64,000 bases of DNA, from contig JBFWNW010000002.1 in NCBI GenBank assembly GCA_050250855.1, positions 69,925-133,924 of the forward strand, in the 5' to 3' direction. Shown in pieces: positions 4,891 through 57,480 of this stretch. Source of the stretch: Candidatus Babeliales bacterium (GTDB lineage Bacteria; Babelota; Babeliae; Babelales; JACPOV01). The first letter of the stretch is position 1; every line of letters begins with the position of its first letter. Below the pieces are notes generated by a model that did no database searches, had not been told where the DNA came from, and saw only the letters and a list, made by a program, of their open reading frames with translations. A program made the translations under genes and the position numbers.

Positions 4891-5101
4891 AAAATCCCCT
4901 ACAAGGTTAATTTTGTTATAATAAAGATTAGATCTGCCTTAAGAATAACTTCTACTATAAAAATGTCAATTCAAAAGAACTGCTTGCCCATCACCTTTTA
5001 ATTCAAATAGAAAACTATAAATAACGCCTTTTTGACTTTTTTTTAAAAATCTATAATGTTATACATATATGGGTAAAAAATAGCTATAAATGGAGGCTAT
5101 C

Positions 5102-9673: not shown

Positions 9674-10519
9674 TTATGGATTTCCATATTTTTTGAATAT
9701 TTTTTCAACAAAAATACGGTTTGATTCTTTAGAAAGCTTTACTGCATGGTTATAATCAGCATTAAGTTTAAACGTTTTTTCTTCATTGCAACGATCAAAA
9801 CCATAGCCTTCCCATAATTTTTCCCAGTTTTCTTTATACTCCAAACAACTGAGAATGGTAGGCAATGCTCCTTCAAGCCAAGCATCATTTTTTCTATAGA
9901 TTTCGCACAGTTCAATAAAATCATCTTTATATACCGCTGGTATATATGCTATATCTGCATATGCATGACAGATGCAATTATCTCCCCAGTTAGCTTTTAA
10001 CATTTCCTTATAGCAATCAGGCGTTTCTTTATAAGCATTCTTTAGTGCTTCATAACCAAATTTTGTTGGCCACCAACAATTAGTAATTGCTCTAATCCCT
10101 TTATTTAAATTAACAGCTTCTCCAATATCATATCTATGCCAATTAACGAATACATGATTAGCGGCCCATATTTTTGATAGATCAAAACGATTATAACGCC
10201 AAACATTCATTAAGCAATCATCGTGACAGAACAAATACCCTTTATAATCAGGAAATCTTTGCATAGCATCACTAAGAGCATAATAACTAAATGCCCCTCG
10301 CTCCTCTTCAATCGCATAAACGTCAGGACACTCACTTGGTCCATAAAAAATTACTTTAGAAAAATAAGGCTCATAGATCTTTTTTAAAAATGAGATTGCT
10401 TCATAATGAGCAAAATTAAAATTTATAATTAAAAGAACATCATCAAACATTTTTCCATAATTAGAAAAAATAATAGTAAAGACAAAAAAATAAACAATTC
10501 TTTTACTAAAAAAAACCAT
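9674..10519 (-). CDS. Hypothetical protein, last gene of the glycan locus; possible glycosyltransferase
   Basis: 281-aa ORF with a hydrophobic N-terminus (IVYFFVFTIIF). I recognised no family motif. Function is guessed from context only. Confidence 0.35.
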   Translation of the reverse strand: MVFFSKRIVYFFVFTIIFSNYGKMFDDVLLIINFNFAHYEAISFLKKIYEPYFSKVIFYGPSECPDVYAIEEERGAFSYYALSDAMQRFPDYKGYLFCHDDCLMNVWRYNRFDLSKIWAANHVFVNWHRYDIGEAVNLNKGIRAITNCWWPTKFGYEALKNAYKETPDCYKEMLKANWGDNCICHAYADIAYIPAVYKDDFIELCEIYRKNDAWLEGALPTILSCLEYKENWEKLWEGYGFDRCNEEKTFKLNADYNHAVKLSKESNRIFVEKIFKKYGNP

Positions 10520-10531
10520 AGGTTTCCCTTT

Positions 10532-11611
10532 CTAGTGTGTTATAGTTTTATAATAGCTATAAGCCTTTTCAAGCATAGCTATTTGCTCCGGTGTAAAAAT
10601 TAACTCTCTTTTGTAATCAGGAATAGTTAATGATAACACGGTATCAATAAAATATTCTGTAGAAAATAGAAATGCCATTTCGCTCTTCAAGTAAGCTTTA
10701 ATATTTTTAATATATTGATCATATTCTTCTTTTTTCATCTTTTTCATAAATTTATATAATTCTCGATTATTTTTAAATTTACGGCGATCAATAAAGCAAC
10801 TTGGCCATACACAATCGGTAATATTTTCTGCACCCCAATAGACTGGTACACAGCCAGAAACTAAACAATCAAAAATTTTTTCTGTAATATAGCCAGGAAC
10901 ATTATTACAATTTTCATAACAAATGCAAAATTTATAATTTTTTAATACTGGGCGTTTATGAGGAACCTTGCCTTTAAATGTCTTAAATTGCGATGCAGGC
11001 CAACCACCTTCACCATAAAAATCAAATTTTTTTCTCCTTTTACTTTTTTTCTCAAAAAAATTAATTACTTCTCTTCGTGCAGAATATAACTGGCCAACTC
11101 CTCCTGACATCTTATAGCTTACTATCATAGTGCACAATTTCTTTTGATCAAAAGAAGGAATATCTTTTTCTATTTCTAATGATGGTTGAGGATAAAAAAA
11201 CTTTAAAGCTTTATCGTTATCAATCATTGCATCAGATAAATATAAAATTTTTTTACAATAAGGCCGATAATCAAAACTATACATTCCTGGCGCAATCAGA
11301 GGCGGTTCAAAAACTCCAAAAATAGATTTTTCTTGCAATGTTTTCGGCAAAAGATCGACATTAGGAGTATTTAAAAAAAAAGCCCCTATACAATTATCAT
11401 CATTATAATCACTAAGCTCTAAACAGCTTGGATGATAACCAAGATTTTTTATGGCTTGTGCAAAATCGTAAAACATCTTCCATCCATTATCGCGACAAGG
11501 GTAATTAGGAATATTTAATATTTCATCAGACAAATTAAAATAAAATACTTTTTCTGTTCCAACTACAGTAAAAAAAGCTAAAAAAACTAATACTCTTATC
11601 TTATTATTCAT
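10532..11611 (-). CDS. GT10-family alpha-1,3/4-fucosyltransferase (copy A1)
   Basis: GT10 signature FCICYENCNNVPGYITEKIFDCLVSGCVPVYWG; compare H. pylori FutA FENS..GYVTEKI...IPIYWG. Signal-like N-terminus. Confidence 0.85.
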   Translation of the reverse strand: MNNKIRVLVFLAFFTVVGTEKVFYFNLSDEILNIPNYPCRDNGWKMFYDFAQAIKNLGYHPSCLELSDYNDDNCIGAFFLNTPNVDLLPKTLQEKSIFGVFEPPLIAPGMYSFDYRPYCKKILYLSDAMIDNDKALKFFYPQPSLEIEKDIPSFDQKKLCTMIVSYKMSGGVGQLYSARREVINFFEKKSKRRKKFDFYGEGGWPASQFKTFKGKVPHKRPVLKNYKFCICYENCNNVPGYITEKIFDCLVSGCVPVYWGAENITDCVWPSCFIDRRKFKNNRELYKFMKKMKKEEYDQYIKNIKAYLKSEMAFLFSTEYFIDTVLSLTIPDYKRELIFTPEQIAMLEKAYSYYKTITH

Positions 11612-11618
11612 ATATTTT

Positions 11619-12467
11619 CTACGCCTTCAAGTAACTATGTTGTAAATGGGGATTAAAAAAAAGAGCCGCGAGCGCAACATTTGATACGCCATGGATAAAA
11701 TGATCACACTTAGAAAGCAACTGTGTTTCAATCAAAACCTGTTCTCCCATTAATGCTCTATTTTTTACTTGTTGGTTCCATATATGTAATCCTGTATCAT
11801 CAAGAGATCGATAGGAGTCATAATAGATCACCTTACCAGGTAATTTCTTTTTTAATTCATCAAGAACTCGTTGATCATCAGTCGCTACCAAAAATTGTGC
11901 TCCCTTATGCTTAGAAGCCTCTTCTATATACTGCTTAAGAGGAATTCGCGGTGCTTCATTATGGTCTGTTCTGCGTACATGAATACCGACCGTCTTTTTA
12001 CCTTGCATATTTTTGTGATAAAAATCATCAATTTTTGCACTAATTTGAGGTTTTATATGTATATATTTTTCTATATATGAGTTAATAAAAGATCTATATT
12101 CATAAGAAAAATTTTGTTCATATCCAATATATCCGCAAGGTATAGCTTGACCATCTGGCGTAACATAATCTTCATGTATTACATCACCAGAATTATACTG
12201 AGCTTCTGAGACGGGATAAAAATAATATTCCCAAATATTATCACTTCCATTATAAGTTCCTGATACTTTATAATAAGCAGGAGCACGGTTCCAATGTACC
12301 ACAAGATCTAGCCCTTTTTCTTCACACCATATAAGATGACTGACTACACCAAATATATTAGAAAAAAGACCTGCCCAGCGACCACCTAAAACATAATGAT
12401 CTTTTGAAAAAGAGAAAAAACTAAAAAATATAATCGACATACAAAGAAAACAAGAATAATTTTTCAT
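11619..12467 (-). CDS. GT23-like (FUT8/NodZ-type) fucosyltransferase (copy B1)
   Basis: GIHVRRTDH ... FLVATDDQRVLDELKKKLP ... GLHIWN ... closely parallels FUT8 IGVHVRRTDK ... VYLATDDPSLLKEAKTKYP ... GLHNRY. Signal-like N-terminus. Confidence 0.75.
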   Translation of the reverse strand: MKNYSCFLCMSIIFFSFFSFSKDHYVLGGRWAGLFSNIFGVVSHLIWCEEKGLDLVVHWNRAPAYYKVSGTYNGSDNIWEYYFYPVSEAQYNSGDVIHEDYVTPDGQAIPCGYIGYEQNFSYEYRSFINSYIEKYIHIKPQISAKIDDFYHKNMQGKKTVGIHVRRTDHNEAPRIPLKQYIEEASKHKGAQFLVATDDQRVLDELKKKLPGKVIYYDSYRSLDDTGLHIWNQQVKNRALMGEQVLIETQLLSKCDHFIHGVSNVALAALFFNPHLQHSYLKA

Positions 12468-12502
12468 TAACTATTTCCTCAACAAAAATCTGTTTTATAG
12501 CT

Positions 12503-13387
12503 CTAAGAAATAACCAAGCCTACCTTAAAATCTTCCGTCATTTTTAAATATATGCTTTTTAATAATGGATTAAAAAACAATGCACCCAAGGAAACATTTG
12601 ATACAGAGTGAATAAAACAATCGCACAAAGAAAGTAGCTTTGATTCTATAAGCACTTGCTCTCCCATAAGAGCTTTATTATCTACTTGTGGGTTCCATAT
12701 ATGCAATCCTTTATTATTTGAAGAACGATACGCATCATAATAAATAACGTTTCCCTTTAGTTTTTGTTTTAAAATATCTAACACTGATTGATCATCGGTC
12801 GCTACTAAAAACTGCACATCTTTAAAAGAATTTGCCACCTGAATATAAGCATTAAGAGGAATGCGTGGCGATTCATAATGATCTGTTCTTCTAACGTGAA
12901 TTCCTATTGTTGCTTTACCTTCCATATTTTTTTTATAAAAATCATTCATTTTTTCAAGAATAGAAGGCTTTATGTGAATATATCTTTGAATATAGGAGTT
13001 AATAAATGATCTATATTCATAAGAAAGATTTTTTTCATATAAATAATATAAACATTCAATAGCTTCTCCATCTGGTGGCGTATAATCTGCGTGCAATTCA
13101 TCACCAAGTTGATAGTGAGCTTCTGAAACAGGATAAAAATAATATTCCCAAATATTATCACTGCCATTATAACCATCACTCATCTTGTAAAAAGAAGGCT
13201 CATCTTTCCAATAAACTACTAAGTCCATTCCCTGTTTTTCACACCAAATGAGATGATTAATGACCCCAAGGATATTTGAAAATAACCCTGTCTGCCGACC
13301 TGTCAAAACATAATAATTATTACTTAAACAAGAAAATGATTGTCCTAAGAAAAAAACTCCTATAATAATTTTTACAAAAAACCGCAT
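12503..13387 (-). CDS. GT23-like (FUT8/NodZ-type) fucosyltransferase (copy B2)
   Basis: Paralogue of 11619..12467: GIHVRRTDHYESPRIPL, FLVATDDQSVLDILKQKL. Confidence 0.75.
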   Translation of the reverse strand: MRFFVKIIIGVFFLGQSFSCLSNNYYVLTGRQTGLFSNILGVINHLIWCEKQGMDLVVYWKDEPSFYKMSDGYNGSDNIWEYYFYPVSEAHYQLGDELHADYTPPDGEAIECLYYLYEKNLSYEYRSFINSYIQRYIHIKPSILEKMNDFYKKNMEGKATIGIHVRRTDHYESPRIPLNAYIQVANSFKDVQFLVATDDQSVLDILKQKLKGNVIYYDAYRSSNNKGLHIWNPQVDNKALMGEQVLIESKLLSLCDCFIHSVSNVSLGALFFNPLLKSIYLKMTEDFKVGLVIS

Positions 13388-13390
13388 AAC

Positions 13391-14461
13391 TTATCCTATT
13401 TTTTTAAACAAAAAAGAACAATAATCCTTTGCCTTTTCAAGGTTAGTTATTTGTTCCGGGTTAAAAATAAGCTCTTTTTTATAATCAGGAACTGTTAATG
13501 ACAAAACTAAATCAATAAAATATTCCATAGAAAATAAAAACGCCATTTCACTCTTTAAATATGCCTTGATATTTTCAATATATTGATCGTATTCCTCTTT
13601 TTTCATATGCTTAATGAAATTGTACAACTCTTGATTATCCTTAAATTTACGCCGATCAATAAAGCAATTTGGCCATACATAATCGGTAATATTTTCTGCA
13701 CCCCAATAAATAGGGACACATCCTGCAACTAAACAATCAAAAATTTTTTCTGTAACATATCCTGGCGCATTGTTGCTATTTTCGTAACATATACAAAACT
13801 TGTAATTTTTGAGCACTGGTCTTTTGTGAGAAACCTTCCCTTTATAGGTTTTAAATGACGCTGGCCATTCAATACCATATACATCAAGCTCTTGGACTCT
13901 TTGAGGATCTGAATCAAAAAAATTAACTACACTAAGACGTTGGGTAAATAATTCTCCAGGCCTTTCTATAAATTTATAGGTTGCAATAAGTGCACATAGT
14001 TTTTTTTCATGAAAATCTGGAATATCCTCTTCAATCTCCAGTGAAGGTTGAGGATAAAAAAATTTAAATCTCGTATTGTTATCAATCTTATTATCCAAGA
14101 GATATAAAGTTCTAAAAGGATAGAAGGTTGTTGTATAATAACCAGGAGCAATAATAGGCGGCTCCCATAATGAGAATAAACATTTTTCAGGAATTAGATT
14201 CGGTGAAATATAATTGGGCAAATTAATAAAAAAAGCACCTGCATAATCTTTTGATCCCAGATAATCAAATTCTTTTACCTCATAACCAAGTTTTTTTGCC
14301 GCCTGAGCTAATTCATAAAAAACTCTATAAGCAGCATCTCTTTGCGGATAAGAAGTATCAGTAAAAGTAACTTCTGGAAGATTTATATAAAAAATCCTTT
14401 GATCAGCTTCACTCAAAAAAACCTGTAATAAAAAAGTAATTCCTAATAAATAGCGCACCAT
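13391..14461 (-). CDS. GT10-family alpha-1,3/4-fucosyltransferase (copy A2)
   Basis: FCICYENSNNAPGYVTEKIFDCLVAGCVPIYWG. The C-terminal half is nearly identical to copy A1. Confidence 0.85.
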   Translation of the reverse strand: MVRYLLGITFLLQVFLSEADQRIFYINLPEVTFTDTSYPQRDAAYRVFYELAQAAKKLGYEVKEFDYLGSKDYAGAFFINLPNYISPNLIPEKCLFSLWEPPIIAPGYYTTTFYPFRTLYLLDNKIDNNTRFKFFYPQPSLEIEEDIPDFHEKKLCALIATYKFIERPGELFTQRLSVVNFFDSDPQRVQELDVYGIEWPASFKTYKGKVSHKRPVLKNYKFCICYENSNNAPGYVTEKIFDCLVAGCVPIYWGAENITDYVWPNCFIDRRKFKDNQELYNFIKHMKKEEYDQYIENIKAYLKSEMAFLFSMEYFIDLVLSLTVPDYKKELIFNPEQITNLEKAKDYCSFLFKKIG

Positions 14462-15933
14462 TATACTATGCCAAAATTATACAGCTTTCTCTTTTGATAT
14501 AGCTGCTGATCATACCTAAAATATTGTGCATTACGCACATATAAAGGATCGTTATGATCAGAACCATCTAAAGGGTAATTATTCTTAATAAGCTGCTCAT
14601 AGAATATTTTTTCTTTACCGAGTGAACGGGCTACTTCAGCCAGTTCATTATCGCAGTAATATGATTTATATTCTGGATAATAAATATATCCAAACCGTTT
14701 ATAATACATTCTGCCTATAATAGGATAAATAACATAGTCTTTAGGATCTCTGCCATCTGAAAAATTAAGGATACCGTCAAAATCAGGAAAATGTTTCAAC
14801 ATTTGACGCACTATAACTACATCATAGTTTTTTACGATAGGTTCAAGATCATCACTTACTACTAAAATAACGTCAAACTTATCAATAAAATCATCGATAT
14901 CTTTATTGTATGCTTCAATTTTTGAACTACTATTGCCAAAGCGATAAGAAAGATTTGGCAAACTATCAAGAATACTTATTACCTTGGCATTATTCATAGT
15001 TGGATCATCTTGATCGCACGTAATTAAAAAATGGTAGGGAATGGTTCCTGATAACATCTCATAGTACTTTTTTAAATATTGGAAAAATTGTACCGGACGA
15101 TAACGCGTTGGAATTTTTATAAGTAGACGAACTAACTGCTCTCTTGACTGCTTGCAAGCATGAAATGCTATAGTATCTATATCTTTTTTATATGCACTAT
15201 AGGGCCTTGGAGGTAAACAATCAACATAAGTACCTTCTTCAATACGGCCCACATCATAGCGCCAATTAATTTTATCTATTCTCGTGCGTGGTGAAACTAC
15301 ATCAGTTTTGCCCAATCGTATACAGCGACTCTCATAACCATCCCACGCAAGTACCGTTTTATATAACATTTTTTGATCAGTGGTCCATCCAATTGCAGTA
15401 TCATGCCATTCTTTAATCTTTTGAGGGATATCCTCTTTTGTGAAAATCTTAAAAATTTCTGCAAAAATTTTACCTTTACCTGCAACATAGCACATAGGAA
15501 TTTCTTTGAATTGTCGTTCAAACTCTTCGCTATCTCGATAAACAACAAAAACATCATCAGCTAAATCTTTAATACGCTCGGTAAAATAATCTCGAGAAAG
15601 AGGTAATAAGTCTATATCAGAAACTATGCAACAATCATTGGGAAATAACAAGGGCAAAAATAAGCGAATACATTGAGCATATAATGACGTTGGTATGCCT
15701 GGAATAGGCTCAAAGCGAATAATGTCACCTAATGATTCATCTATTTCTACACTTTTATCTGCAATTAAAGCTAACGTTGGCCTTATACCAACTACTTCTT
15801 TCCACATCTTGGCAACCAGCGGCCAGTATTCTATATAATTGGGATTTGCATCAGTAGACAAAATAACACGATCAAGCGTTAAAGCTTCTGCTTTAAAAAT
15901 ACATAAAAAAAGTACTACGTATATTCTTCTCAT
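14461..15933 (-). CDS. Hypothetical two-domain protein, possible glycosyltransferase
   Basis: 490-aa ORF with signal-like N-terminus MRRIYVVLFLCIFKAEA and 1-nt overlap with the downstream gene. No family motif recognised with confidence. Confidence 0.4.
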   Translation of the reverse strand: MRRIYVVLFLCIFKAEALTLDRVILSTDANPNYIEYWPLVAKMWKEVVGIRPTLALIADKSVEIDESLGDIIRFEPIPGIPTSLYAQCIRLFLPLLFPNDCCIVSDIDLLPLSRDYFTERIKDLADDVFVVYRDSEEFERQFKEIPMCYVAGKGKIFAEIFKIFTKEDIPQKIKEWHDTAIGWTTDQKMLYKTVLAWDGYESRCIRLGKTDVVSPRTRIDKINWRYDVGRIEEGTYVDCLPPRPYSAYKKDIDTIAFHACKQSREQLVRLLIKIPTRYRPVQFFQYLKKYYEMLSGTIPYHFLITCDQDDPTMNNAKVISILDSLPNLSYRFGNSSSKIEAYNKDIDDFIDKFDVILVVSDDLEPIVKNYDVVIVRQMLKHFPDFDGILNFSDGRDPKDYVIYPIIGRMYYKRFGYIYYPEYKSYYCDNELAEVARSLGKEKIFYEQLIKNNYPLDGSDHNDPLYVRNAQYFRYDQQLYQKRKLYNFGIV

Positions 15934-15943
15934 AGCTATCTCT

Positions 15944-17305
15944 TTATTCAGTACATGAAATTAAACAAATATCTTCTTTGTCTTTGGATAAATCATAAGA
16001 TTGTATAGTTGAAAGTGATAATACAGTATTTCTTTTTACTATCATGCCACATGAATCTGCAGGAGACATAAATTTTACTTGTGAAATAGCTAAACCATCC
16101 CATAGATATGAAGCATTTTGCTGAGAAGAAAAATCTTTTTTGGATAGTATACAGAAATTTGATTTTGTATCATGCATAGCTTCTGCACAAATTTCTCTAT
16201 TTTTTAATGTTTCTAAAGCTTTAACGTCTGTAATAACACAATAATAATCATAATTAACATCTTTTAACCAAAAATCAGGTGATGCATCCTGCGATGGGTT
16301 AATAACAAACGTATAATGAGAGTAAAGAGAAGCTAATTGTTCATAATCATTTTTATGAGATAAGTCTCCACAGCAAATAACGTTTAGATTTTCATTTTTA
16401 TATAAACCTTTAAATGCGCTTAATGTCTCTGCAAGTGTATTTGGATCATTAGCATAGATCAAAAAAGGAATAGATTTTTTTTGATACGATTCTCGATAAG
16501 GTCTTTGTTCAAGGGGTTTGTATGCCGACCGGCTGCTAATAACCTTTCTTAAAAATTGTTGCTTTTCCCAGTTAGTTGCACCATCTGCAATTGGATTATC
16601 TTCATTGTAGCGATATAAAATGTTTGGGTTAAATTTGTAATGATTAATTGCCATCTCTATAATTGGATACACCCAAGAAACGTCCTGTGCCATAGAGAAA
16701 AACATACCTTCATGTAGTAAATCTTTAAGAGCAACTTCTCTAAAAAGCCATGCATACATGCAACGAGGAGGACTAAAATACCAATTTTGACGAATAAGAT
16801 TACGCTGCTTTACCATAGGAGGAATATCACCAGACCATGGTGCATAACCGTTTCTTGTTCCCCAAAAATTACCGTAGGTAAACCAAATAGATTCATCACT
16901 AAACTGTTCATTGATTGATGATAAAACATCTTTTGTAGTAAAGGTATCATCGCCATCCAAAATTACTGCAATTTCATGAGGTTTGCAGAATTTATAAAAG
17001 GCATACACAATATTTCTGAGCGCAAGACCACGAATTTCATTTTTAATAAGAGTAACGCGATGATGTATATCATACTGATCAATAAAAGCCTTTGCATTTG
17101 CATAAGTATTATCAGGAGAACAATCATCTATATAAACAACGCGAAATTTTTCATAATCCTGCATAAGAACTGATGCTAAATTTTCATTGCATACATCTTG
17201 ATTTTTATAAGAAGGAATAATAACAACAATATCATGCTGATATGCTGCTGCTATAGTATATACTCCCCCTACAAAAATTAATCCAAAAAATAGTTTTAAA
17301 TTCAT
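15944..17305 (-). CDS. GT2-family glycosyltransferase with an extra C-terminal domain
   Basis: VVIIPSYKNQD...VVYIDDCSPDNT and DGDD (DXD) motifs. Preferred start MNLKLFF at 17305 forms an ATGA overlap with the upstream stop. An alternative start lies at 17335. Confidence 0.8.
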   Translation of the reverse strand: MNLKLFFGLIFVGGVYTIAAAYQHDIVVIIPSYKNQDVCNENLASVLMQDYEKFRVVYIDDCSPDNTYANAKAFIDQYDIHHRVTLIKNEIRGLALRNIVYAFYKFCKPHEIAVILDGDDTFTTKDVLSSINEQFSDESIWFTYGNFWGTRNGYAPWSGDIPPMVKQRNLIRQNWYFSPPRCMYAWLFREVALKDLLHEGMFFSMAQDVSWVYPIIEMAINHYKFNPNILYRYNEDNPIADGATNWEKQQFLRKVISSRSAYKPLEQRPYRESYQKKSIPFLIYANDPNTLAETLSAFKGLYKNENLNVICCGDLSHKNDYEQLASLYSHYTFVINPSQDASPDFWLKDVNYDYYCVITDVKALETLKNREICAEAMHDTKSNFCILSKKDFSSQQNASYLWDGLAISQVKFMSPADSCGMIVKRNTVLSLSTIQSYDLSKDKEDICLISCTE

Positions 17306-18243
17306 ACACACTTCCTTATTTGCTTTAAGTACCATTGAAAATTTTTAATATCATTTCTTGAACTATAAATATGGGTATTTTCATTAACAAAATCACCTTG
17401 CCAGGTAATATAAAAAGGAATTGAAACCTGATTATAATCCAAAAGCATAGGAACTTTCTGCGTATAGTCTTGTTTATGAATGCAAAGATCTTTTAAATAG
17501 GCTAAAATTCCCAACAACGCTTGTTCATAGCGAGCACAACCAAACCCTTCAGGAGCTGTCCCATCATCAATAAAATTTCTTAAATCTTTGCTCATGTTAT
17601 ATAAGGGAGTAATAAAAAGATCTTGTGCTTTTTGCGCTACACCAATAACACCAGCCATAACTGCCTCTTGTGAAAGTATCCATTGATACTCGGGAGCATC
17701 AAGATTAAATTTATTTCTTACATAACGCGTTGTCTGCCATGCAATGGGATGTCTAAATTTACCATTATCACGCTCATTACCAATAGTAGCTAAAAAATAT
17801 CCTTTGTGCTGTATATATTCAAATAAATCATCAAGAGGACGCAATACCGTTGAGCCTGCATCTATCCATAGAACATAGGGAAATCTTTCTAAAGCCTGTT
17901 TTATAACAACAGGTTTCCATGCAAACCATCCAGGAACCATTCTTCCTGCCTTATTAATTACTACCTGCCTGAGTAAGTCAGGATGCGTTAATTCAACATT
18001 ATAAACTGCTATATTTTGAATAGTTTTAAGAAAAGAAATTTGTTGTTCTTCAAGGCCTAAATCAAAAACAGCAATTTCGTTAATATTGTCATAATTTGTA
18101 GCATGTAATGATCCAATTAAATTTAAAAGCTTAGAAAAATATTTTGCATCACATGCAGTACAATAATACTGAGGAATAGCTTGTAGAAAAGCCATTCCTC
18201 CTAATAAAGCTAACCATACATAAAGAGTCTTTCTTTTTATCAT
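17302..18243 (-). CDS. Nucleotide-diphospho-sugar-transferase-like protein
   Basis: Signal-like N-terminus. FAWKPVVIKQALERFPYVLWIDAGS resembles GT-A families with a W-K-P...D-x-D/S core. Family assignment is uncertain. Confidence 0.45.
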   Translation of the reverse strand: MIKRKTLYVWLALLGGMAFLQAIPQYYCTACDAKYFSKLLNLIGSLHATNYDNINEIAVFDLGLEEQQISFLKTIQNIAVYNVELTHPDLLRQVVINKAGRMVPGWFAWKPVVIKQALERFPYVLWIDAGSTVLRPLDDLFEYIQHKGYFLATIGNERDNGKFRHPIAWQTTRYVRNKFNLDAPEYQWILSQEAVMAGVIGVAQKAQDLFITPLYNMSKDLRNFIDDGTAPEGFGCARYEQALLGILAYLKDLCIHKQDYTQKVPMLLDYNQVSIPFYITWQGDFVNENTHIYSSRNDIKNFQWYLKQIRKCV

Positions 18244-18249
18244 TACTCT

Positions 18250-18840
18250 TTACTCAAAAAATGTACGAATATCTATAGTATCACTGACAATCGTTGTCTG
18301 AATTGCATAACGCAAATAAGTATAACGATATTTGAAAGTTGCAAGAACTGGTTCATACCCATATGCAGGTTCTTCTGTATCATGTACAACAAAAATATCT
18401 GCATTATGGCGCAAACGCTCAATATCAACTCTTCGTCTATCACCAGGACGATGATCAACAAAAACCACTGACCAATAGCGATCTGTTCCTACAGCATCCC
18501 ATAATTCTGGCTTTGGATTCTTTGCCCAATCATCTTCAAAAACAGGAATATAGCTAAAATGATGCCAATCTCGTGCCAAATCTATAAATAAAGAAAGCCA
18601 TCTTTTATCAGTATCTGTTGTAAGAAGAAACCGTTTTGTTACTGAACAAACAGCATGCAAAAGTGGCGTACTATAATCCCCAGATCCAAGTTCTAAAATA
18701 GGCCCTTTAGTATTTGCCACGACCGTCATAAGAGGAGCCATGTGAGTCCCATAATTGCCATCACCAAGACGTCTATTCGCTTCTATAAACTGGCCATTTA
18801 AACTCAATAAAATTATGAATAAAAATAATTTTTTTTGCAT
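18250..18840 (-). CDS. Possible SAM-dependent methyltransferase-like protein
   Basis: ILELGSGDYSTP resembles Rossmann motif I, and VVFVDH / VVHDTE strands follow. Start MQKKLFLFIILL at 18840 avoids overlap with the upstream gene. Confidence 0.35.
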   Translation of the reverse strand: MQKKLFLFIILLSLNGQFIEANRRLGDGNYGTHMAPLMTVVANTKGPILELGSGDYSTPLLHAVCSVTKRFLLTTDTDKRWLSLFIDLARDWHHFSYIPVFEDDWAKNPKPELWDAVGTDRYWSVVFVDHRPGDRRRVDIERLRHNADIFVVHDTEEPAYGYEPVLATFKYRYTYLRYAIQTTIVSDTIDIRTFFE

Positions 18841-18853
18841 ACTATTCCCTCTT

Positions 18854-19774
18854 TTAAAAAGACCAATCAATATCCCAAATATCTAAATCTTTAAAGTAAC
18901 CTTTTCCATACTGTTCAAACCATGCCAATACCTGTTTTTTCCTCCATAAAATTGGTTTATCCCATACAGAAAAATCAAGAAATTCATAACCTTTAAACCA
19001 ATATACTGGAGATGGTTGCGTTCTTAATCCTCGCTCATCTTTTGAAGGGAAATAACGCACATTAATTTCCTGGCAAGATTTTTCTGGTTGCCTGATACGC
19101 TCAAGACAGCGATACCACGCTTGTTTTTCTAATAAGTTTTGCCAATTAACAAACTGAAAATGCAAAAGGCCATATTCATAACCCTGTAAACGGAATCTTT
19201 TTCCTTGCACGGGAAAACTACGATTATGCAAAAAGTATGAAGGAAAATTTGAAACACCATCATCGCAAAAAATAACAGGTTTATAATCATTGGTCCATTT
19301 TGAGTCATCAAAACGATAGCGATCTATTGTTCTCCAGAGTTGAATCCAACAAACCTCCATACTTTCTCCTGGCTGCAAAGAAAGAATAAGTTTGCGTAAA
19401 AAATTATTATCTGAACAGTTTGCAGTAAACATTTCATCCGCATCAATTAAAACAAAATGAGTACCACCAAGTGCTCTGCCAGCATCTAATAATTTCTGCT
19501 TGTTATCACTTTCTTTGCCAACTTGCCAGCCAGATTGTTCATTGCGCAAAATGACAAATTCTTTGCCAAGCTTTTTACAACATGATTCAACCAGAATTTT
19601 AGTGCTATCTTCAGAATTATCATCAAGCGTAACAAATGCATCAACATAAAAAGACAATGCTTGTAAACATTGCTCAATACATTGCTCTTCATTTCTTACT
19701 TGCATAAGACTTACTATTTTAGGTGAAGCAGTTAAAGATAAAAAAGTCCCTAACAATAATAATAATTTAAACAT
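18854..19774 (-). CDS. GT2-like glycosyltransferase
   Basis: VSLMQVRNEE...VTLDDNSEDST and LIDADEMF (DXD) motifs. Start MFKLLLLLG at 19774 is preceded by AAGGAG. Confidence 0.6.
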   Translation of the reverse strand: MFKLLLLLGTFLSLTASPKIVSLMQVRNEEQCIEQCLQALSFYVDAFVTLDDNSEDSTKILVESCCKKLGKEFVILRNEQSGWQVGKESDNKQKLLDAGRALGGTHFVLIDADEMFTANCSDNNFLRKLILSLQPGESMEVCWIQLWRTIDRYRFDDSKWTNDYKPVIFCDDGVSNFPSYFLHNRSFPVQGKRFRLQGYEYGLLHFQFVNWQNLLEKQAWYRCLERIRQPEKSCQEINVRYFPSKDERGLRTQPSPVYWFKGYEFLDFSVWDKPILWRKKQVLAWFEQYGKGYFKDLDIWDIDWSF

Positions 19775-19787
19775 ATTCAGCACTCCT

Positions 19788-20636
19788 TTACTGAACAAAT
19801 GCTTCTTTTTTTAACCAGCTTCCTGCCCAATGGTGCACCGCATATGATTCAGGTTTTTGCCATTCTGAGGCAGGGGTTCCTCGTTGTTCATAACCACATG
19901 GGTAAAAGTAACTAGCGGGAAAAGCTACGATACGAAATTCTTGCATCATAGAGGGAACATATTTTAAAAAAAGTTTAGTAAAAAACAAAGGACCCGTTCT
20001 TAGTATAATCTGAATCTCATGAGATGAATTACGCAACTCTTCAATACATTTTTGCAATAATGGATGATGAGGAATAGACGCTATTAAAGCATTGTTAAGC
20101 TGGACCATATTGGTATCCAAAGGTTGAATACCGGTGTAAAAATCATAAATACATAAAGAATTCATTGATTTTAAACATTCAAAATCGGTATCAATGTAAA
20201 TACCCCCAAATTGCTCTAAAATTTCATAACGCCAAATATCAGACTTTTCACCATAATTCTTTGAAGCATCAAATAGATCTTTATTACGCCACGCAAATGA
20301 TGCTACATCTGCATCTGTCCATAATTTATATTCCCAGCCAGGATTATGCTTCAACCAGCTTTCTTGATAAGCGCGGTATTTTTCAGGAAAAGGACTACCA
20401 AGCCAAATTTGATGTATTATTTTAGGGATACGAACAGACGTCGGCACAATTCTTGCTGGTGAAAATAAGTTATATAAACGCTCAAAAAAGTTTTTAAGCA
20501 TCATATTATTATTCTTTTCAAGAATATGTTTATATGAATCAGCTTGCATTGATGTATTAAAATCTACCCATATAAAATTTTCCTGTGCACAAACTAAAGA
20601 ACTAAAAAGAAACGTTATGCTTAATAGTTTTTTCAT
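19788..20636 (-). CDS. GT32-type glycosyltransferase with a DXD sugar-binding region
   Basis: IPKIIHQIWLG...NPGWEYKLWTD...SDIWRYEILEQFGGIYIDTDFECL is a classic Gly_transf_sug/OCH1-type signature. Signal peptide MKKLLSITFLFSSLVCA. Confidence 0.8.
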   Translation of the reverse strand: MKKLLSITFLFSSLVCAQENFIWVDFNTSMQADSYKHILEKNNNMMLKNFFERLYNLFSPARIVPTSVRIPKIIHQIWLGSPFPEKYRAYQESWLKHNPGWEYKLWTDADVASFAWRNKDLFDASKNYGEKSDIWRYEILEQFGGIYIDTDFECLKSMNSLCIYDFYTGIQPLDTNMVQLNNALIASIPHHPLLQKCIEELRNSSHEIQIILRTGPLFFTKLFLKYVPSMMQEFRIVAFPASYFYPCGYEQRGTPASEWQKPESYAVHHWAGSWLKKEAFVQ

Positions 20637-20638
20637 AA

Positions 20639-21670
20639 TTATACCCTTGCTTGTTTATAAGATTTTTCTGGTACAACCTTGTGCGCTAAATACCAAAAAT
20701 ATGCTTCCTTTAAACCATTTTTCAATGAAGTTTTTGCTGTCCAACCAAGCTGTGAAATTTTATCAACATTTAATACTTTTCTTGGCGTGCCATCTAAAGT
20801 ATTGATATTAAAAAGGATTTCTCCTGCATACCCAACGATCTCTTTAATTAAAGAAGCTAGTTCGGCAATTGTTATATCTTTACCGGTCCCAATATTAATA
20901 TGACCCGATTCTTCATAACTATTCATTAAAAATAAGCATGCTTGCGCTAAATCATCGACGTATAAAAATTCTCGCAACGCTTTACCCGTTCCCCATAAAG
21001 AAACTGACGGTTTATTTTCTTCTTTTGCTGCATGAATTTTTGCAATAAGTGCAGGAATAACGTGCGATGATTCAAAGTCAAAATTATCATGAGGACCATA
21101 AAGATTTGTTGGCATACAAGAAATAAATTTTGTACCATATTGCCTGTTATAGCTTTTGCATAAAAGTATGCCGGCAATTTTTGCAAGCGCATACGGCTCA
21201 TTTGTTTTTTCAAGTTCATCGGTCATTAAATACTCTTCTTGTATTGGTTGAGGACAATTACGAGGATAAATGCAAGAAGAACCTAAAAATAAGAGCTTTT
21301 TAACGCCATTGGTATACGATGCATGAATAATATTTGCTTCAATCATAAGATTGTCATAAATAAATGAGGCTGGAAAATCATTATTTGCTTTAATGCCGCC
21401 AACTTTTGCAGCAGCCAAAAACACATATTCCGGTTTTTCTTGGTTGAAAAAATCATGTACCGCTGCTTGGTTGCGCAAATCAAGTTCTGCAAAACTACGC
21501 GTTATAAGGTTAGTATATCCTTCAGCTTGCAACGCTCGCATTAAAGCAGAGCCAACCAACCCCTGACCTGCTATATAAATTTTTGCCTGCTTGTCCATAT
21601 GTGCTTCACTAACACCAGTAAAAAGATTAAAAATCAAGCCTATACTCATTATCTTTGTTACGTAGTTCAT
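20639..21670 (-). CDS. fcl: GDP-L-fucose synthase (GDP-4-keto-6-deoxymannose 3,5-epimerase/4-reductase)
   Basis: Collinear with E. coli Fcl from [11 protein letters not shown] (ATG at 21598) to the C-terminus: [33 protein letters not shown]. An upstream in-frame ATG at 21670 has a strong AGGAGA SD and adds the hydrophobic 24-aa segment [24 protein letters not shown]. Confidence 0.9.
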
Positions 21671-22859
21671 GAGATTCTCCTGATAATTTTTGAGCTGCAA
21701 TGTAGATATTTGAGCCGGTTGCCTCACTTTTTAATTCCCATGCAATTTGTTCTAAATCTGCATCCATCATTAGACAAACTAAATCTTTAAAGGTTGTTTT
21801 TGGCTCCCAACCAAGAAGTTTTTTTGCTTTGCTAGGATCACCCAGTAAAATTTCAACTTCAGTCGGTCTGAAATAACGAGGATCAACCGCTATCAACAGC
21901 TCACCAGTTTTTTTATTGTATCCTTTTTCCTCAGCACCTATACCGCGCCATTCTACCGTAATACCAACACGTTCAAATGCTAATTCAACAAACTCTCTTA
22001 CGGTATGCGTTTGTCCGGTTGCAACAACCCAATCTTCAGGCTTTTCATACTGTAAAATAAGCCACATTGCTTCTACATATTCTTTGGCATAGCCCCAATC
22101 TCGTTTTGCATCAAGATTACCTAAATAAATAGGATCTTTTTTACCTAAAGAAATTGCGGCTACCGCACGCGTAATTTTTCTGGTTACAAAGGTTTCGCCA
22201 CGTAAAGGAGATTCATGATTAAATAAAATACCATTTGCAGCAAACATGCCGTAGGCTTCTCGATAGTTTACCGTTATCCAATAGGCATAAAGTTTTGCAA
22301 CACCATAGGGAGAACGTGGATAAAAAGGGGTCGTTTCTTTTTGAGGAATTTCTTGTACGTTGCCATACATTTCTGAAGTTGATGCTTGGTAAAATTTCGT
22401 TGTTTTATCAAATCCGGTTACACGCAATGCTTCTAATAAACGCAAGGTACCTATGCCATCAGCATTTGCTGTATATTCTGGCACTTCAAAAGAAACTTTT
22501 ACATGAGATTGTGCTGCAAGATTATAAATTTCATCAGGCTTAATTTCTTGTATCAAACGAATAAGATTGGTAGAATCGGTCATATCACCAAAGTGTAAAA
22601 AGAAATTTCCTTTCTTTTTATTATGAGGATCACGGTATAAAGGATCTATGCGATGCGTATTAAACATTGATGAACGACGTTTAATGCCATGAACTTCATA
22701 CCCTTTACCCAGTAAAAATTCAGCCAAGTAGGCCCCATCTTGACCAGTTATACCGGTAATTAAGGCAACTTTTTTCTTCATACTCTGCTCTCCTGCAAAA
22801 AAAGTACTGAATCCTAAGCAAGCTACTGCAACAAAAATTTTTTTATAAGAGTGCTTCAT
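21627..22859 (-). CDS. gmd: GDP-mannose 4,6-dehydratase
   Basis: Collinear with E. coli Gmd from [16 protein letters not shown] (ATG at 22781, AGGAGA upstream). The longer ORF from 22859 adds [26 protein letters not shown]. Confidence 0.92.
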
Positions 22860-22874
22860 ATCCTATTTCCTTTT

Positions 22875-23903
22875 TTATGTATAATGATGGCTATTTTTTT
22901 CCCGTAATTGATGCAAAATATGTTTTACTTTATCTGTCTGATCTCGCTTCGCTATTAAAAGAACATCATCTGTTTCTACAACACATAGATCTTCAACGCC
23001 TATAAGTGCTACGAGCTTTTTTGGCACCTGAACAATATTATTAGCTGCGTGCAATTCAATAACTTCTGTTTGCTGTTGGCTATGCTTTTTGTGCAAAGAA
23101 AGAAATATTTCTAAGTTGCCAACATCTGACCATGTAAAAGAGCAGGGCTGTACATACACGGCATTACTTTTTTCTAATACCGCATAATCAATAGAAATAT
23201 TTTCGGCATCTTTGTAATCTGCTTTATGTTCAAAAAAATCACATACCACCTTATATAGCTGTTGGGCATGACGATTGTATTCTTCTATAAAAACAGAACT
23301 TTTGGCACAAAAAATACCTATATTCCATAACATGGTATCCATGGTACTATATACATCCGCCAATTGCGCTGAAGGTTTTTCATGAAAACGAGAAACTTTT
23401 ACAACATCATTTTTTTGCGCTGCCATTTCTATGTAGCCATAGTTTGTTGCGGGAAAATCAGGACGAATTCCTAACAATGTTATGGCATCATGAGCTTGCG
23501 AAAATTCTAACGCATTATTTAAATGTTTGGCAAATTGGTCATCTTCTACAATAAAAGCATCAGCAGGTAAAAAAGCTATAATTGCTGAAGGGTCTTTTTG
23601 TTGAATATAAAGCGTAGCCAAAAGTAATGCTGGCGCTGTATTGCGGCCAATTGGTTCAGACAAAATGCCGCCTATAGAATCTCCCAAAAGACTTTTAATA
23701 GAATCAACCTGCTGCTCAGTTGTCATAATAAAAATATTATGTTTTTCAACAATTAAAGAAGCACGCATAACAGTACGCTCAAGCAAAGAATTTTGATCAT
23801 CAAGAGAGAGCAGCTGCTTTGGCTTTTTCTCTCTACTCAAAGGCCATAAACGCTCACCTTTGCCTCCAGCTAAAATAACAATATAGCGTGATGTTATATC
23901 CAT
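22875..23903 (-). CDS. manC: Mannose-1-phosphate guanylyltransferase (nucleotidyltransferase domain only)
   Basis: VILAGGKGERLWPLSREKKPKQLL N-terminal NTP-transferase signature. At 342 aa there is no C-terminal isomerase/cupin domain. Confidence 0.8.
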   Translation of the reverse strand: MDITSRYIVILAGGKGERLWPLSREKKPKQLLSLDDQNSLLERTVMRASLIVEKHNIFIMTTEQQVDSIKSLLGDSIGGILSEPIGRNTAPALLLATLYIQQKDPSAIIAFLPADAFIVEDDQFAKHLNNALEFSQAHDAITLLGIRPDFPATNYGYIEMAAQKNDVVKVSRFHEKPSAQLADVYSTMDTMLWNIGIFCAKSSVFIEEYNRHAQQLYKVVCDFFEHKADYKDAENISIDYAVLEKSNAVYVQPCSFTWSDVGNLEIFLSLHKKHSQQQTEVIELHAANNIVQVPKKLVALIGVEDLCVVETDDVLLIAKRDQTDKVKHILHQLREKNSHHYT

Positions 23904-23909
23904 AACTAT

Positions 23910-24623
23910 TTATTTTTTTCTTCGTTCAAAAAACAAACGACAAAATGTTTTAGCTGCTTCTTTCATAATTGCTACTGAAAGCTTTGAATCGCCATGAATT
24001 CTATTACGTGCATGAATCGGAATTTCTGTTATACGCAAACCATCCTCTTTAAAGCGATACAGTGATTCAATGCAGAAAGAAAATCCTTTTGAACTTACTT
24101 TTTTATAGACATGAGGCTTTAATTTTTGTACAGAATATAAACGGTAAGCACCGGTACAATCGTACGGCATACCAAGGCCTCGTTTAATTAAATTTCGCCA
24201 AAAGTAAGTAAATGGTAAACGAATTCTTCCCCAACCGCTCATGCCACCGCCATGAATATAGCGTGAACCAATAACGACATCATGAACATCTCTTTTTTCA
24301 AAAAGAGCAGGAATATAACGCGGATCGTGCGTAAGATCTGCATCCATCGTAATTAAAAATTTATAATTATGTTTTTGCGCATATTCAAATGCCTGCACGT
24401 GAGCCGTTCCTAAACCAAGCTTTGCAGGGCGATGCATAACATGCACAGAAGGATCTTTTTTACTTAAATCATCAAGAACTTTTCCGGTGCCATCTGGAGA
24501 ATTATCATCACAAAAAAGAATATCAACATCTTCTTTGTGCTTCTTTATTTCTTCATACAAAATTAAAACATTGTCACGTTCATTATAGGTGGGAACAAAA
24601 ACTAAAACTTCATTTTTTTGCAT
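23910..24623 (-). CDS. Polyprenyl-phosphate sugar synthase, Dpm1/Ppm1-like GT2
   Basis: VFVPTYNERDN...DILFCDDNSPDGTG...HRPAKLGLGTA...ITMDADLTHDP is the canonical dolichol/polyprenol-phosphate mannose synthase pattern. Confidence 0.8.
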   Translation of the reverse strand: MQKNEVLVFVPTYNERDNVLILYEEIKKHKEDVDILFCDDNSPDGTGKVLDDLSKKDPSVHVMHRPAKLGLGTAHVQAFEYAQKHNYKFLITMDADLTHDPRYIPALFEKRDVHDVVIGSRYIHGGGMSGWGRIRLPFTYFWRNLIKRGLGMPYDCTGAYRLYSVQKLKPHVYKKVSSKGFSFCIESLYRFKEDGLRITEIPIHARNRIHGDSKLSVAIMKEAAKTFCRLFFERRKK

Positions 24624-24632
24624 AGTATAAAC

Positions 24633-29485: not shown

Positions 29486-29500
29486 AGGAAAAGTTCCTCT

Positions 29501-51377: not shown

Positions 51378-51486
51378 TAATAAGTAGGACAAATCAAGGG
51401 TCTATTCTTGCAATCAAAAATAGCCCTTGACAAAAAATTAATATGAAGGGTATTGTGTGAAAGTAATGTCAAAAAAAGGAATATTA

Positions 51487-52638: not shown

Positions 52639-52650
52639 ATGTAGAAAAAA

Positions 52651-56912: not shown

Positions 56913-57478
56913 CGATAGTTAACCATATTAAAGAATTCATTGAGCAACTTGATGAAGCAGCTTTTAAGCGTTACATAGTTACCTTTTTTGCTCTTTTTTT
57001 CCTCTGCATAGGTTTTATTATATATCGCTACTATAGTGGCGTTTCAGTTATAAAAAATCGCATTGATACTATTAATAAAAAAAGAAAAGAGGTTAAAAAT
57101 CTCTTAGAACGTTTTGAAGTTGTTAAAGTACAAAAAACGGAAGTAGATACACTTCTTGAAAAAGATGCAGCATTTAAAATTGGTGGTTATTTTGATACTA
57201 TTATTAATCAACTAGGCATAGCCGGTAATCAAACTCGTGCTCCTGAAACTTCATCTGAAGAGCTAGATAATGGCTACACTGAAGTTAAGTTGTATGCAAG
57301 CTTTACCAACATGAATACACAAAAGCTTGTAGCATTACTTGACACACTTGAGCAAAATGAACGAATCTATACAAAAGAAGTTGAAATTTATAAACCAGAT
57401 GTTGGCAAAACAATCAACATAAATATTTTAATTGCAACGCTTGAACCAAAAATTGAAACAACTGAAATAACGGAGTGA
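56909..57478 (+). CDS. PilO/GspM-like bitopic membrane protein
   Basis: 189 aa with a single TM helix (IVTFFALFFLCIGFIIY), a coiled coil and a C-terminal alpha/beta domain. ATGA overlap upstream. Confidence 0.55.
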   Translation: MTIVNHIKEFIEQLDEAAFKRYIVTFFALFFLCIGFIIYRYYSGVSVIKNRIDTINKKRKEVKNLLERFEVVKVQKTEVDTLLEKDAAFKIGGYFDTIINQLGIAGNQTRAPETSSEELDNGYTEVKLYASFTNMNTQKLVALLDTLEQNERIYTKEVEIYKPDVGKTININILIATLEPKIETTEITE

Positions 57479-57480
57479 TT

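Follow-up and report, generated by a model that had tools for sequence, protein, structure and literature searches.

The 64,000-nucleotide stretch of DNA analysed here, referred to below as the window, belongs to a metagenome-assembled genome (MAG) of the Babeliales (Dependentiae, TM6) and carries a glycan locus in which thirteen neighbouring enzymes, i.e., ten glycosyltransferases, a methyltransferase-like protein, the GDP-mannose 4,6-dehydratase Gmd and the GDP-L-fucose synthase Fcl, are predicted to bear Sec-type signal peptides. The evidence presented below supports the view that these N-termini are real, translated and of the Sec type, and the pattern suggests an extracytoplasmic sugar-building pathway, which would be very unusual for bacteria. 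In bacterial glycan assembly, nucleotide-sugar synthesis and Leloir transferases are cytoplasmic and the lipid-linked products are moved outward. The locus is of interest on account of its order-wide conservation and of the involvement of nucleotide-sugar synthesis enzymes besides transferases.

The source genome (designated G000), whose DNA was found in landfill metagenomes, is a 1.22 Mb MAG of 11 contigs that is 95% complete, has about 35-36% GC and contains 1136 open reading frames (ORFs). Those members of the GT32 family of this locus that carry names are assigned to the Babeliales, Babeliaceae or Dependentiae, and cultured Dependentiae are obligate intracellular parasites of protists (PMC6561590). 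The locus consists of nineteen minus-strand genes running from 30685 down to 9674, separated by gaps of -44 to +35 nt, in the order WecB, WecC, ADH/GFO fusion oxidoreductase, GT-C PMT_2, Dpm1-like GT2, ManC, Gmd, Fcl, GT32, GT2_4-like, methyltransferase-like, DUF1647/GT8-like GT-A, GT2, two-domain GT-A, GT10, two NodZ/FUT8-like proteins, a second GT10 and a STELLO-like protein. The signal-bearing and the signal-less modules thus form one 21-kb same-strand array, the synteny of which is kept in relatives.

Signal peptides were called with a home-made rule set that looks for an n-region with K/R, an uncharged stretch containing a hydrophobic core, small residues at positions -3 and -1, and a polar region after the cleavage site; it was applied in a strict and a relaxed version, with sequences starting at an internal Met serving as decoys. 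A looser rule tried first was dropped, since 54% of ORFs passed it, among them proteins with Rossmann N-termini such as WecC. Signal-peptide-like N-termini were called on 38% (strict) to 40% (relaxed) of the 1136 ORFs, as opposed to 1.4% of the decoys. Under the relaxed rule, the eleven transferases together with Fcl and Gmd make up a run of 13 such ORFs, the longest in the genome, and in 5000 gene-order shuffles the probability of a maximal run of at least 13 was ~0.006. A preliminary description of the window had not noted that about 40% of the ORFs of this genome are signal-peptide-like; the run is therefore less improbable than had been assumed, and the trait is order-wide. All thirteen proteins possess a K/R n-region and an uncharged hydrophobic run of 10-26 residues (15 residues or fewer in 8/13), and a small-residue -3/-1 site is present in 13/13 by the relaxed and 10/13 by the strict version, e.g., SEA/D, AEA/L, VCA/Q and SEA/H (with the stroke at the predicted cleavage site), that of Gmd being the least canonical. 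One signal peptidase I gene was found in the genome (Peptidase_S26, 119 bits). No canonical L-[AS]-[GA]-C lipobox was seen in the thirteen, and a lipoprotein reading was therefore rejected; a Tat-signal reading was likewise rejected, as none of the thirteen combines a twin arginine with the Tat consensus and TatC was not found in the genome with the query used, which in a 95%-complete genome is not proof of its absence.

A trivial explanation of such N-termini would be that the start codons had been set too far upstream, AT-rich sequence ahead of the real starts being read as K/I/F/L-rich peptides. The GC content given above indeed favours these four residues, and in Gmd and Fcl of this genome the canonical position is occupied by an internal Met, which in the case of gmd is preceded by a Shine-Dalgarno (SD) motif. 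Against this stand the scarcity of calls among the internal-Met decoys, the SD motifs found ahead of the signal-bearing starts and several orthologues that lack an alternative start (see below). In this genome, SD-like motifs of at least 5 nt precede 37% of unambiguous starts and 3% of internal ATGs. Furthermore, the next Met of most transferases falls inside the conserved domain, and the genes of the array are 2-15 nt apart only when the signal-bearing starts are used, a spacing that suits the long starts. An artefact of start-codon choice is thus considered hardly credible.

The eleven minus-strand ORFs from 20636 down to 9674 represent the ten glycosyltransferases and the methyltransferase-like protein, all of them with signal-peptide-like N-termini. 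These were all found in the sequence as the preliminary description had quoted them; three of the quoted Met residues, at 19774, 18840 and 17305, are internal to slightly longer ORFs, each of these ATGs having an SD-like motif of its own (AAGGAG, GAGG and TAAGGA, respectively) and the longer TTG/ATG starts having none. Of the families named earlier, GT32 and GT10 matched above their cut-offs; of the two GT23-like proteins one scores just above and the other just below, the GT2_4-like protein falls below, and the methyltransferase label is an Atlas lead.

The first of these genes in the direction of transcription encodes a GT32 (DXD) glycosyltransferase (19788..20636; PF04488, 62 bits against 23), whose predicted signal peptide MKKLLSITFLFSSLVCA is followed by QENF after the cleavage site and for which a partial PF12919 match spans residues 72-119 only. 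A hydrophobic N-terminus ahead of a conserved VDFDxSMQ motif was observed in 111 of its 120 nearest cluster representatives. About 40% of the GT32 orthologues have uncharged runs of at least 20 residues, and since such long runs look like anchors, the implied inner-membrane tethering fits periplasmic action and does not fit secretion. Next are a GT2-like (Glyco_tranf_2_4) transferase (18854..19774, starting at ATG 19774 with AAGGAG as SD; predicted signal peptide MFKLLLLLGTFLSLTA; PF13704, 24.5 bits, below the cut-off of 27.5) and a protein resembling class I S-adenosylmethionine (SAM)-dependent methyltransferases (18250..18840, starting at ATG 18840 with GAGG as SD; predicted signal peptide MQKKLFLFIILLSLNG). 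The latter contains an LELGSGDYS motif and had no Pfam or NCBIfam match, while a PDB sequence search gave chance hits only and a single-sequence AF2 model had a predicted local distance difference test (pLDDT) value of 38. Its label is an Atlas lead only, with a score of 0.95 and 202-208 shared features to three clusters, one of which (the second) is labelled methyltransferase and the other two hypothetical protein.

The following three genes encode a GT-A fold transferase (17302..18243; DUF1647/GT8-like; predicted signal peptide MIKRKTLYVWLALLGGMAFLQA), a GT2 glycosyltransferase (15944..17305; PF00535, 57.8 bits) and a two-domain GT-A-like glycosyltransferase (14461..15933; predicted signal peptide MRRIYVVLFLCIFKAEA, with L after the cleavage site). 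Neither GT-A protein had a Pfam match; in the Atlas, the first is structurally similar to DUF1647 and glycosyltransferase clusters (TM 0.67-0.69), and features and structure of the second point, as a lead only, to GT2-like or viral glycosyltransferase clusters. Signal peptides were called on seven of nine homologues of the former and on eight of ten of the latter, the remaining two being visibly signal-peptide-like in both cases. The GT2 protein carries a signal peptide or signal anchor, MNLKLFFGLIFVGGVYTIAAA, with an uncharged run of 20 residues, and its start is taken to be ATG 17305, which is preceded by TAAGGA, no SD being present at 17335.

Two GT10 fucosyltransferase-like proteins are encoded at 13391..14461 (predicted signal peptide MVRYLLGITFLLQVFLSEA, with D after the cleavage site; PF00852, 58.4 bits against 23.9) and 10532..11611 (MNNKIRVLVFLAFFTVVG, called as a signal peptide; PF00852, 57.9 bits against a gathering score of 23.9), and a CYEN...GYxTEK motif is seen in the GT10 sequences. 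A hydrophobic N-terminus is present in 125 of the 150 nearest 50%-identity cluster representatives of the former, and a signal peptide on 3/3 homologues of the latter in relatives. One cluster, P0184, represents a signal-peptide-like GT10 relative annotated as Parachlamydiales or Verrucomicrobiota, and the signal-bearing GT10 subfamily therefore appears not to be confined to Dependentiae. Between the two GT10 genes lie those of two NodZ/FUT8-like (GT23-like) proteins, which are 69% identical: the one at 11619..12467 (MKNYSCFLCMSIIFFSFFSFS) scores 29.0 vs 28.3 bits with PF05830 and 28.3 vs 27.6 with PF19745, and the one at 12503..13387 (MRFFVKIIIGVFFLGQSFS, called as a signal peptide) scores below the Pfam cut-offs (22.0 and 15.5 bits). 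A signal peptide is present on 2/2 homologues of the former in relatives, and a word-based homologue search with a GT23-like protein as query found 7 proteins. The last gene of the array encodes a STELLO-like glycosyltransferase (9674..10519; PF03385, 34.1 bits vs a cut-off of 27.8) with the N-terminus MVFFSKRIVYFFVFTIIFS, which has a charge of +3 on its N-flank and -1 on its C-flank and was called by the rule set; two signal-bearing paralogues of it are encoded elsewhere in the genome.

The gmd gene (21627..22859; TIGR01472, 611 bits vs 415) had been described as open for 26 codons ahead of the canonical start, which is indeed the case: residues 30-371 match positions 1-341 of TIGR01472, so that a 26-residue signal-peptide-like extension precedes the fold. 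SD-like motifs were found at both starts, i.e., at 22859 and at the canonical internal ATG 22781. For the latter, AGGAG lies 8 nt upstream and, among the relatives checked, an internal SD of this kind was seen in the source genome only. The adjoining fcl gene (20639..21670; NF047922, 470.7 bits with a cut-off of 500; profile positions 2-305 of 308, from residue 28) encodes a predicted signal peptide of 23-24 residues. Its ATG at 21670 does have the AGGAGA 5 nt upstream that had been reported (AGGAG with a 6-nt spacer), the internal ATG at 21598 being without an SD. The signal-coding region of fcl and the 3' end of gmd share 44 nt (21627-21670), and the C-terminal tail of Gmd extends ~35 residues past the end of the profile.

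When the source genome and its relatives are counted together, Gmd carries a signal-like extension in 9/21 genomes and Fcl in 6/22, the signal-bearing Fcl proteins of relatives being those of G004, G013, G021, G033 and G039. Some orthologues offer no ATG close to the canonical start, namely the Gmd proteins of G004, G023, G033 and G039 and the Fcl proteins of G033 and G039, and in these the predicted signal would therefore be obligatory. SD motifs lie ahead of 13/15 signal-bearing gmd and fcl starts in relatives, vs 1/7 internal canonical Met codons. Fcl with a signal occurs solely in genomes that also have Gmd with a signal (both in six genomes, Gmd only in three, Fcl only in none, neither in 12), as is expected if both steps must share a compartment. 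In the Gmd tree, the signal-bearing proteins of G000, G001, G002 and G004, which represent three genera (G000 and G001 belonging to the same one), form a clade with support 100/99; at least two changes of signal state are needed for Gmd, and two to six for Fcl. The signal sequences of Gmd and Fcl cannot be aligned between relatives and have diverged even within that clade. Genome G023 possesses two gmd copies (L012 and L031), one signal-bearing and one signal-less, which form a recent paralogue pair in the tree. In genome G033 (L048), ManC is also signal-bearing, with MKIKFLLSILFFVNLLA and K after the predicted cleavage site, and the whole GDP-fucose route from mannose-1-phosphate therefore looks exported there.

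The remaining genes of the array constitute a signal-less cytoplasmic and membrane module (22875..30685, minus strand), identified through Pfam and NCBIfam matches, with gaps of -4 to 15 nt and no signal peptide on any member. It comprises ManC (22875-23903), a Dpm1-like polyprenyl-phosphate sugar synthase (23910-24623), a GT-C PMT_2 protein (24633-25985), the ADH/GFO fusion oxidoreductase (25982-28159), WecC (28160-29485) and WecB (29501-30685), of which all but the GT-C protein were confirmed to start directly in their folds, as stated earlier. To establish how widely this division holds, 20 stretches from nine relatives of several families were compared. Of 42 glycosyltransferase and methyltransferase homologues, 29 were called as signal-bearing, or 37 when eight are included that are visibly signal-peptide-like and fail the cleavage rule, and five (one GT10 and four GT2) had no signal. 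By contrast, signals were present on 0/22 orthologues of WecB, WecC, the ADH/GFO oxidoreductase and the Dpm1-like protein and on 1/3 of ManC, i.e., 1/25 in total (Fisher p 9e-8 for the dichotomy, the kin compared not being independent). One relative, L052, has ~15 consecutive signal-bearing enzymes, including Fcl. The predicted split into signal-bearing and signal-less enzymes is thus a conserved feature of this glycan locus in the Babeliales. Since the GT32 and GT10 relatives counted above (111/120 and 125/150) keep a signal without conservation of its sequence, selection appears to act on the property itself.

As regards topology, the charge of the N-flank exceeds that of the C-flank in 13/13 locus proteins, 98/111 GT32 relatives and 100/125 GT10 relatives, and by the positive-inside rule an N-in/C-out orientation is therefore predicted. 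The opposite arrangement, in which the segments are uncleaved tethers that hold the enzymes as a membrane-bound metabolon at the cytoplasmic face of the inner membrane, would leave the pathway a conventional cytoplasmic one. It would remove the problem of donor supply, allow the signal-less Gmd and Fcl of relatives to feed signal-bearing transferases, agree with a cytoplasmic location of the GDP-mannose maker ManC, and explain the easy gain and loss of the segment on Gmd and Fcl. It is contradicted by the orientation predicted for all thirteen proteins and for ~80-88% of family members, by the uncharged runs of at most 15 residues in 8/13, which are below a membrane span and are followed by AXA-type sites, and by the occurrence of like N-termini on proteins of this genome that are plainly periplasmic (a PBP transpeptidase, MreC and SpoIID), and it is regarded as improbable. 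The preliminary description had named uncleaved N-in anchors with cytoplasmic catalytic domains as the outcome that would speak against its proposal; this combination is topologically inconsistent, as a single N-in anchor puts the domain outside. Of the possibilities it had raised, export of the catalytic domains is the best supported, given the charge bias, the signal peptidase I gene and the conservation in relatives.

The other possibility, inheritance of the anchors from eukaryote-like ancestors, does not serve as a general explanation. The eukaryotic type II glycosyltransferases of the Golgi (GT10 FUTs, FUT8, GT32 and STELLO) have an N-terminal hydrophobic segment and a non-cytoplasmic catalytic domain, so that the same families and the same sidedness by means of such a segment are encountered in both systems, and one could suppose that GT10, GT23, GT32 and STELLO genes were acquired from eukaryotes or giant viruses with signal anchors that have no special meaning here. 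Atlas look-alikes of the Pfam-unmatched enzymes are often viral, including Nucleocytoviricota, in line with this idea. However, such N-termini are equally found on Gmd, Fcl, GT2 and methyltransferase, which are of bacterial type, and the Gmd and Fcl signals, being unalignable among relatives, have been gained or lost at least twice. Furthermore, the signal is kept in most GT32 and GT10 relatives despite its lack of sequence conservation, and some 40% of the proteome has such signals. A Golgi-type signal anchor with stem was also rejected on its structure: the segment in Babeliales is mostly short, has an AXA-type site and looks cleavable, and catalytic domains or motifs begin within a few residues of it, leaving no stem. 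Three proteins are borderline in this respect, namely the GT2 at 15944, the GT-A at 17302 and the GT23-like protein at 11619. Mere relics are accordingly a very improbable account of the thirteen N-termini.

From these data, the catalytic domains of the thirteen enzymes quite probably lie outside the bacterial cytoplasm, and about half of that likelihood falls on the periplasm or cell surface, rather than the host, as their site. With moderate confidence, we favour as a whole the reading that a Sec-exported pathway acts in the periplasm or at the surface with host-derived donors. The ten glycosyltransferases, the methyltransferase-like protein, Gmd and Fcl would be made with Sec signal peptides, of which a few may be uncleaved N-in anchors, and would cross the inner membrane, bringing their catalytic domains outside the cytoplasm. 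The signal-less WecB, WecC, oxidoreductase, ManC and Dpm1-like protein would feed two GT-C enzymes at the periplasmic face via polyprenyl-phosphate sugars, after which the exported Leloir-type enzymes, working in the periplasm or on the cell surface, would elongate a fucose-rich glycan and methylate it. Donors and cofactors, i.e., GDP-mannose or GDP-fucose, UDP-sugars, NADPH and SAM, would be drawn from the host, and exported Gmd and Fcl would turn host GDP-mannose into GDP-fucose on site. A periplasmic or surface location is favoured because the array is conserved together with a GT-C module that acts on the organism's own envelope side and because many orthologues have anchor-like N-termini. 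The genome contains three TLC/NTT-type (ATP/ADP) translocase genes; in an energy parasite with such translocases, the outer membrane must already admit host nucleotides to the periplasm. LpxC, WaaL/Wzy_C and Bac_transf were not found when this 95%-complete genome was queried, which is not proof of absence, and with neither LpxC nor WaaL found, the envelope may be atypical.

Several points weigh against a periplasmic pathway fed by the host. Export, cleavage and localisation are predicted with a home-made rule set, and it is from sequence that we infer the actual export and cleavage, the compartment, the source of donors and the acceptor. The presence of Leloir donors, of NADPH for Fcl and of SAM for the methyltransferase in the periplasm is an assumption. 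ManC is predicted to be cytoplasmic here, and self-made GDP-mannose therefore could not reach an exported Gmd. With no Tat system found, Gmd, which binds NADP tightly, could acquire its fold and its cofactor only once Sec had exported it. The internal SD of gmd makes it possible that both an exported and a cytoplasmic isoform are produced. Many relatives have signal-less Gmd and Fcl beside a signal-bearing GT32, so that a route for the donor across the inner membrane, or a host donor, would be needed in these. A TPT nucleotide-sugar transporter was not found with the query used, which in a 95%-complete genome is not proof of absence, and neither was a GDA1/CD39 nucleoside diphosphatase (NDPase), for which the query matched no control genome either.

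The enzymes could alternatively travel further and act as secreted effectors that, having crossed the inner membrane by Sec, leave the cell via a type II secretin system or outer-membrane vesicles and fucosylate and methylate host glycans or proteins in the cytosol or vacuole, the secreted Gmd and Fcl making GDP-fucose from host GDP-mannose. The window contains a candidate outer-membrane export machinery on the plus strand (51457..60033), composed of a GspC-like protein (51457-52638; Pfam T2SSC), a secretin (52651-55296; Secretin and Secretin_N), PilM (55293-56912; PilM_2) and a second secretin (57475-60033; Secretin and Secretin_N), and two T2SSE-type ATPases are encoded elsewhere in the genome; passage of the glycan enzymes into the host by way of these secretins (51.5-60 kb), as proposed in the preliminary description, is possible. 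The host cytosol offers GDP-mannose, NADPH, SAM and UDP-sugars, the patchy Gmd and Fcl signals could track the capacity of the host for GDP-fucose, and other signal-bearing proteins of this genome are of eukaryotic type (WD40, ankyrin, SET and PLA2_B) and make sense only in a host. Substrates of type II secretion have no recognisable sequence signal, so that nothing in their sequence links the locus enzymes to the secretin. Moreover, the tight array and its kept synteny with the polyprenyl-phosphate/GT-C enzymes, whose site of action must be the organism's own envelope, argue against effectors, as do the long anchor-like N-termini of many orthologues, which would hold the enzymes in the inner membrane, and the source is a landfill metagenome. 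Chromulinavorax destructans, also of the Dependentiae, shows the same pattern of eukaryote-type domains and sheds vesicles (PMC6561590), and a precedent exists in Chlamydia, where glycogen enzymes and a phosphoglucomutase are secreted and act on host UDP-glucose (PMC4829429, PMC9251005). Taking both sides together, secretion into the host is judged unlikely, albeit far from negligible, and the periplasm or cell surface is retained as the preferred site.

Other genes and proteins of the window and genome were recorded as follows. On the plus strand, a divergently transcribed gene for a second PMT-like GT-C membrane glycosyltransferase is located at 30817..32298 (PF02366, 22.3 bits vs a cut-off of 22.7, i.e., borderline), the end of which is overlapped by 4 nt by the gene of a signal-less HIT-domain protein of the nucleotide hydrolase/transferase superfamily (32295-32813, plus strand). 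Two tandem WD40 beta-propeller proteins (33681-35117 and 35447-36886, plus strand) have identical signal-peptide-like leaders, MKNHFKKLLLFGLLGAMPTIFA, and are candidate secreted effectors. A cluster of signal-peptide-like ORFs lies just upstream of the locus in the window (3734-4120, 4252-4890, 5090-5848 and 5848-7284), among them two paralogues, MFLAHYKNFALVV... and MFLSRYKNFALAA.... About 20 kb upstream of the window, at G000:C2:45842-51483, a second glycan cluster encodes GT23-like, GT2 and STELLO-like proteins with signals and a Dpm1-like protein without one; a weak Wzx-like match was found close by, at C2:42335. A further long run, comprising 12 signal-peptide-like ORFs, is located at G000:C1:381417-393962 and includes several small paralogues with near-identical MKKLL... 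or MKKILILVL... leaders. In a random sample of 45 signal-peptide-like proteins from G000:C1:1-400000, SET-domain, PLA2_B, ankyrin, Methyltransf_25, RPE65, FAD oxidoreductase and phosphoglucose-isomerase-like proteins were observed, along with ordinary periplasmic proteins (PBP, MreC and SpoIID). No Rfam family was matched in the window, and a scan for promoters and terminators returned no intergenic terminator, while promoter-like sites were rarer than in shuffled sequences.

Partial parallels exist in several known systems. In actinobacterial protein O-mannosylation by Ppm1/Pmt, elongation proceeds with further lipid-linked donors; the locus shares with it ManC, a Dpm1-like synthase and a GT-C enzyme of the PMT type acting on the outer side of the cytoplasmic membrane, whereas the candidate elongating enzymes here would be exported Leloir-type transferases. 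The glycosylation genes of chloroviruses and other giant viruses include GMD, GMER and viral glycosyltransferases, which are made in the host cytoplasm. As in the system proposed here, a parasite of protists uses its own GDP-fucose synthesis and transferases on host pools outside a bacterial cytoplasm; unlike in the present case, synthesis in the host cytoplasm makes export unnecessary. The nearest precedents are the secreted glycogen enzymes of Chlamydia and the sialyltransferase Lst of Neisseria. In Chlamydia trachomatis, GlgA and other glycogen enzymes as well as the phosphoglucomutase CT295 were shown experimentally to be secreted and to act on host UDP-glucose (PMC4829429, PMC9251005). 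In both cases an obligate intracellular bacterium exports, or is predicted to export, housekeeping sugar enzymes including a Leloir glycosyltransferase by means of an added signal and uses a host nucleotide sugar, and the presence of the signal on a given orthologue varies among related species. The Chlamydia signals, however, are of type III and the product is glycogen in the inclusion lumen, as opposed to Sec signals and a predicted fucosylated glycan in Babeliales, where the case concerns a whole locus of ~13 enzymes, including nucleotide-sugar interconversion, and is known from sequence alone. The alpha-2,3-sialyltransferase Lst of Neisseria is an outer-membrane Leloir transferase that modifies the bacterium's own surface glycan with host CMP-N-acetylneuraminic acid (CMP-NANA) (PMC4324315, citing Shell et al. 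2002). It resembles the proposed system in being a Leloir transferase outside the cytoplasm that uses a host-derived nucleotide sugar; it differs in being a single enzyme of another family, with no donor-synthesis enzyme known to be exported, in a pathogen that is extracellular or facultative.

Within the Dependentiae, 44% of the coding sequences of C. destructans were assigned a signal peptide by Phobius and effectors, among them ankyrin proteins, were assumed to leave by Sec, in a paper that makes no mention of glycosyltransferases or fucose (PMC6561590). This share is close to the ~40% obtained here for the same lineage. A search of the literature on Dependentiae, TM6 or Babeliales in connection with glycosyltransferases or their export gave nothing relevant. 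The literature searched thus describes neither an exported glycan pathway nor the conserved separation of such a pathway from signal-less enzymes, whereas the high share of signal peptides in Dependentiae has already been published.

A broader interpretation is offered tentatively and with some doubt, namely that the Babeliales periplasm, open to host metabolites, is a Golgi-like glycosylation compartment that runs a complete Sec-exported Leloir pathway on host nucleotide sugars. The exported set would comprise the enzymes of GDP-fucose synthesis, some ten glycosyltransferases and a methyltransferase, joined in some relatives by ManC, and it would elongate glycans primed by the GT-C enzymes on the very large exported proteome or on the envelope. 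The resemblance to the eukaryotic Golgi system would be incomplete, in that Gmd and Fcl are cytosolic in eukaryotes and signal-bearing here, and in that a nucleotide-sugar transporter and lumenal NDPase were not found in this genome by the queries described above. The signal-bearing GT10 relatives in Parachlamydiales hint at a system shared among protist-associated intracellular lineages.

In summary, an order-wide conserved locus of the Babeliales appears to place nucleotide-sugar and Leloir enzymes across the membrane. If this is true, annotation should not trim the Gmd, Fcl and transferase genes of these genomes to their canonical starts, and a concrete function would be named within the unexplained 40-44% secretome of Dependentiae. 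The precedent set by Chlamydia, of housekeeping enzymes gaining secretion signals, would be widened to Sec signals and to a whole pathway. An energy parasite would be seen to outsource glycan building to the metabolite pools of its host, providing a bacterial counterpart to lumenal (Golgi-type) glycosylation, and a Golgi-like periplasm would represent a general system of extracytoplasmic glycosylation such as has not been described in bacteria.

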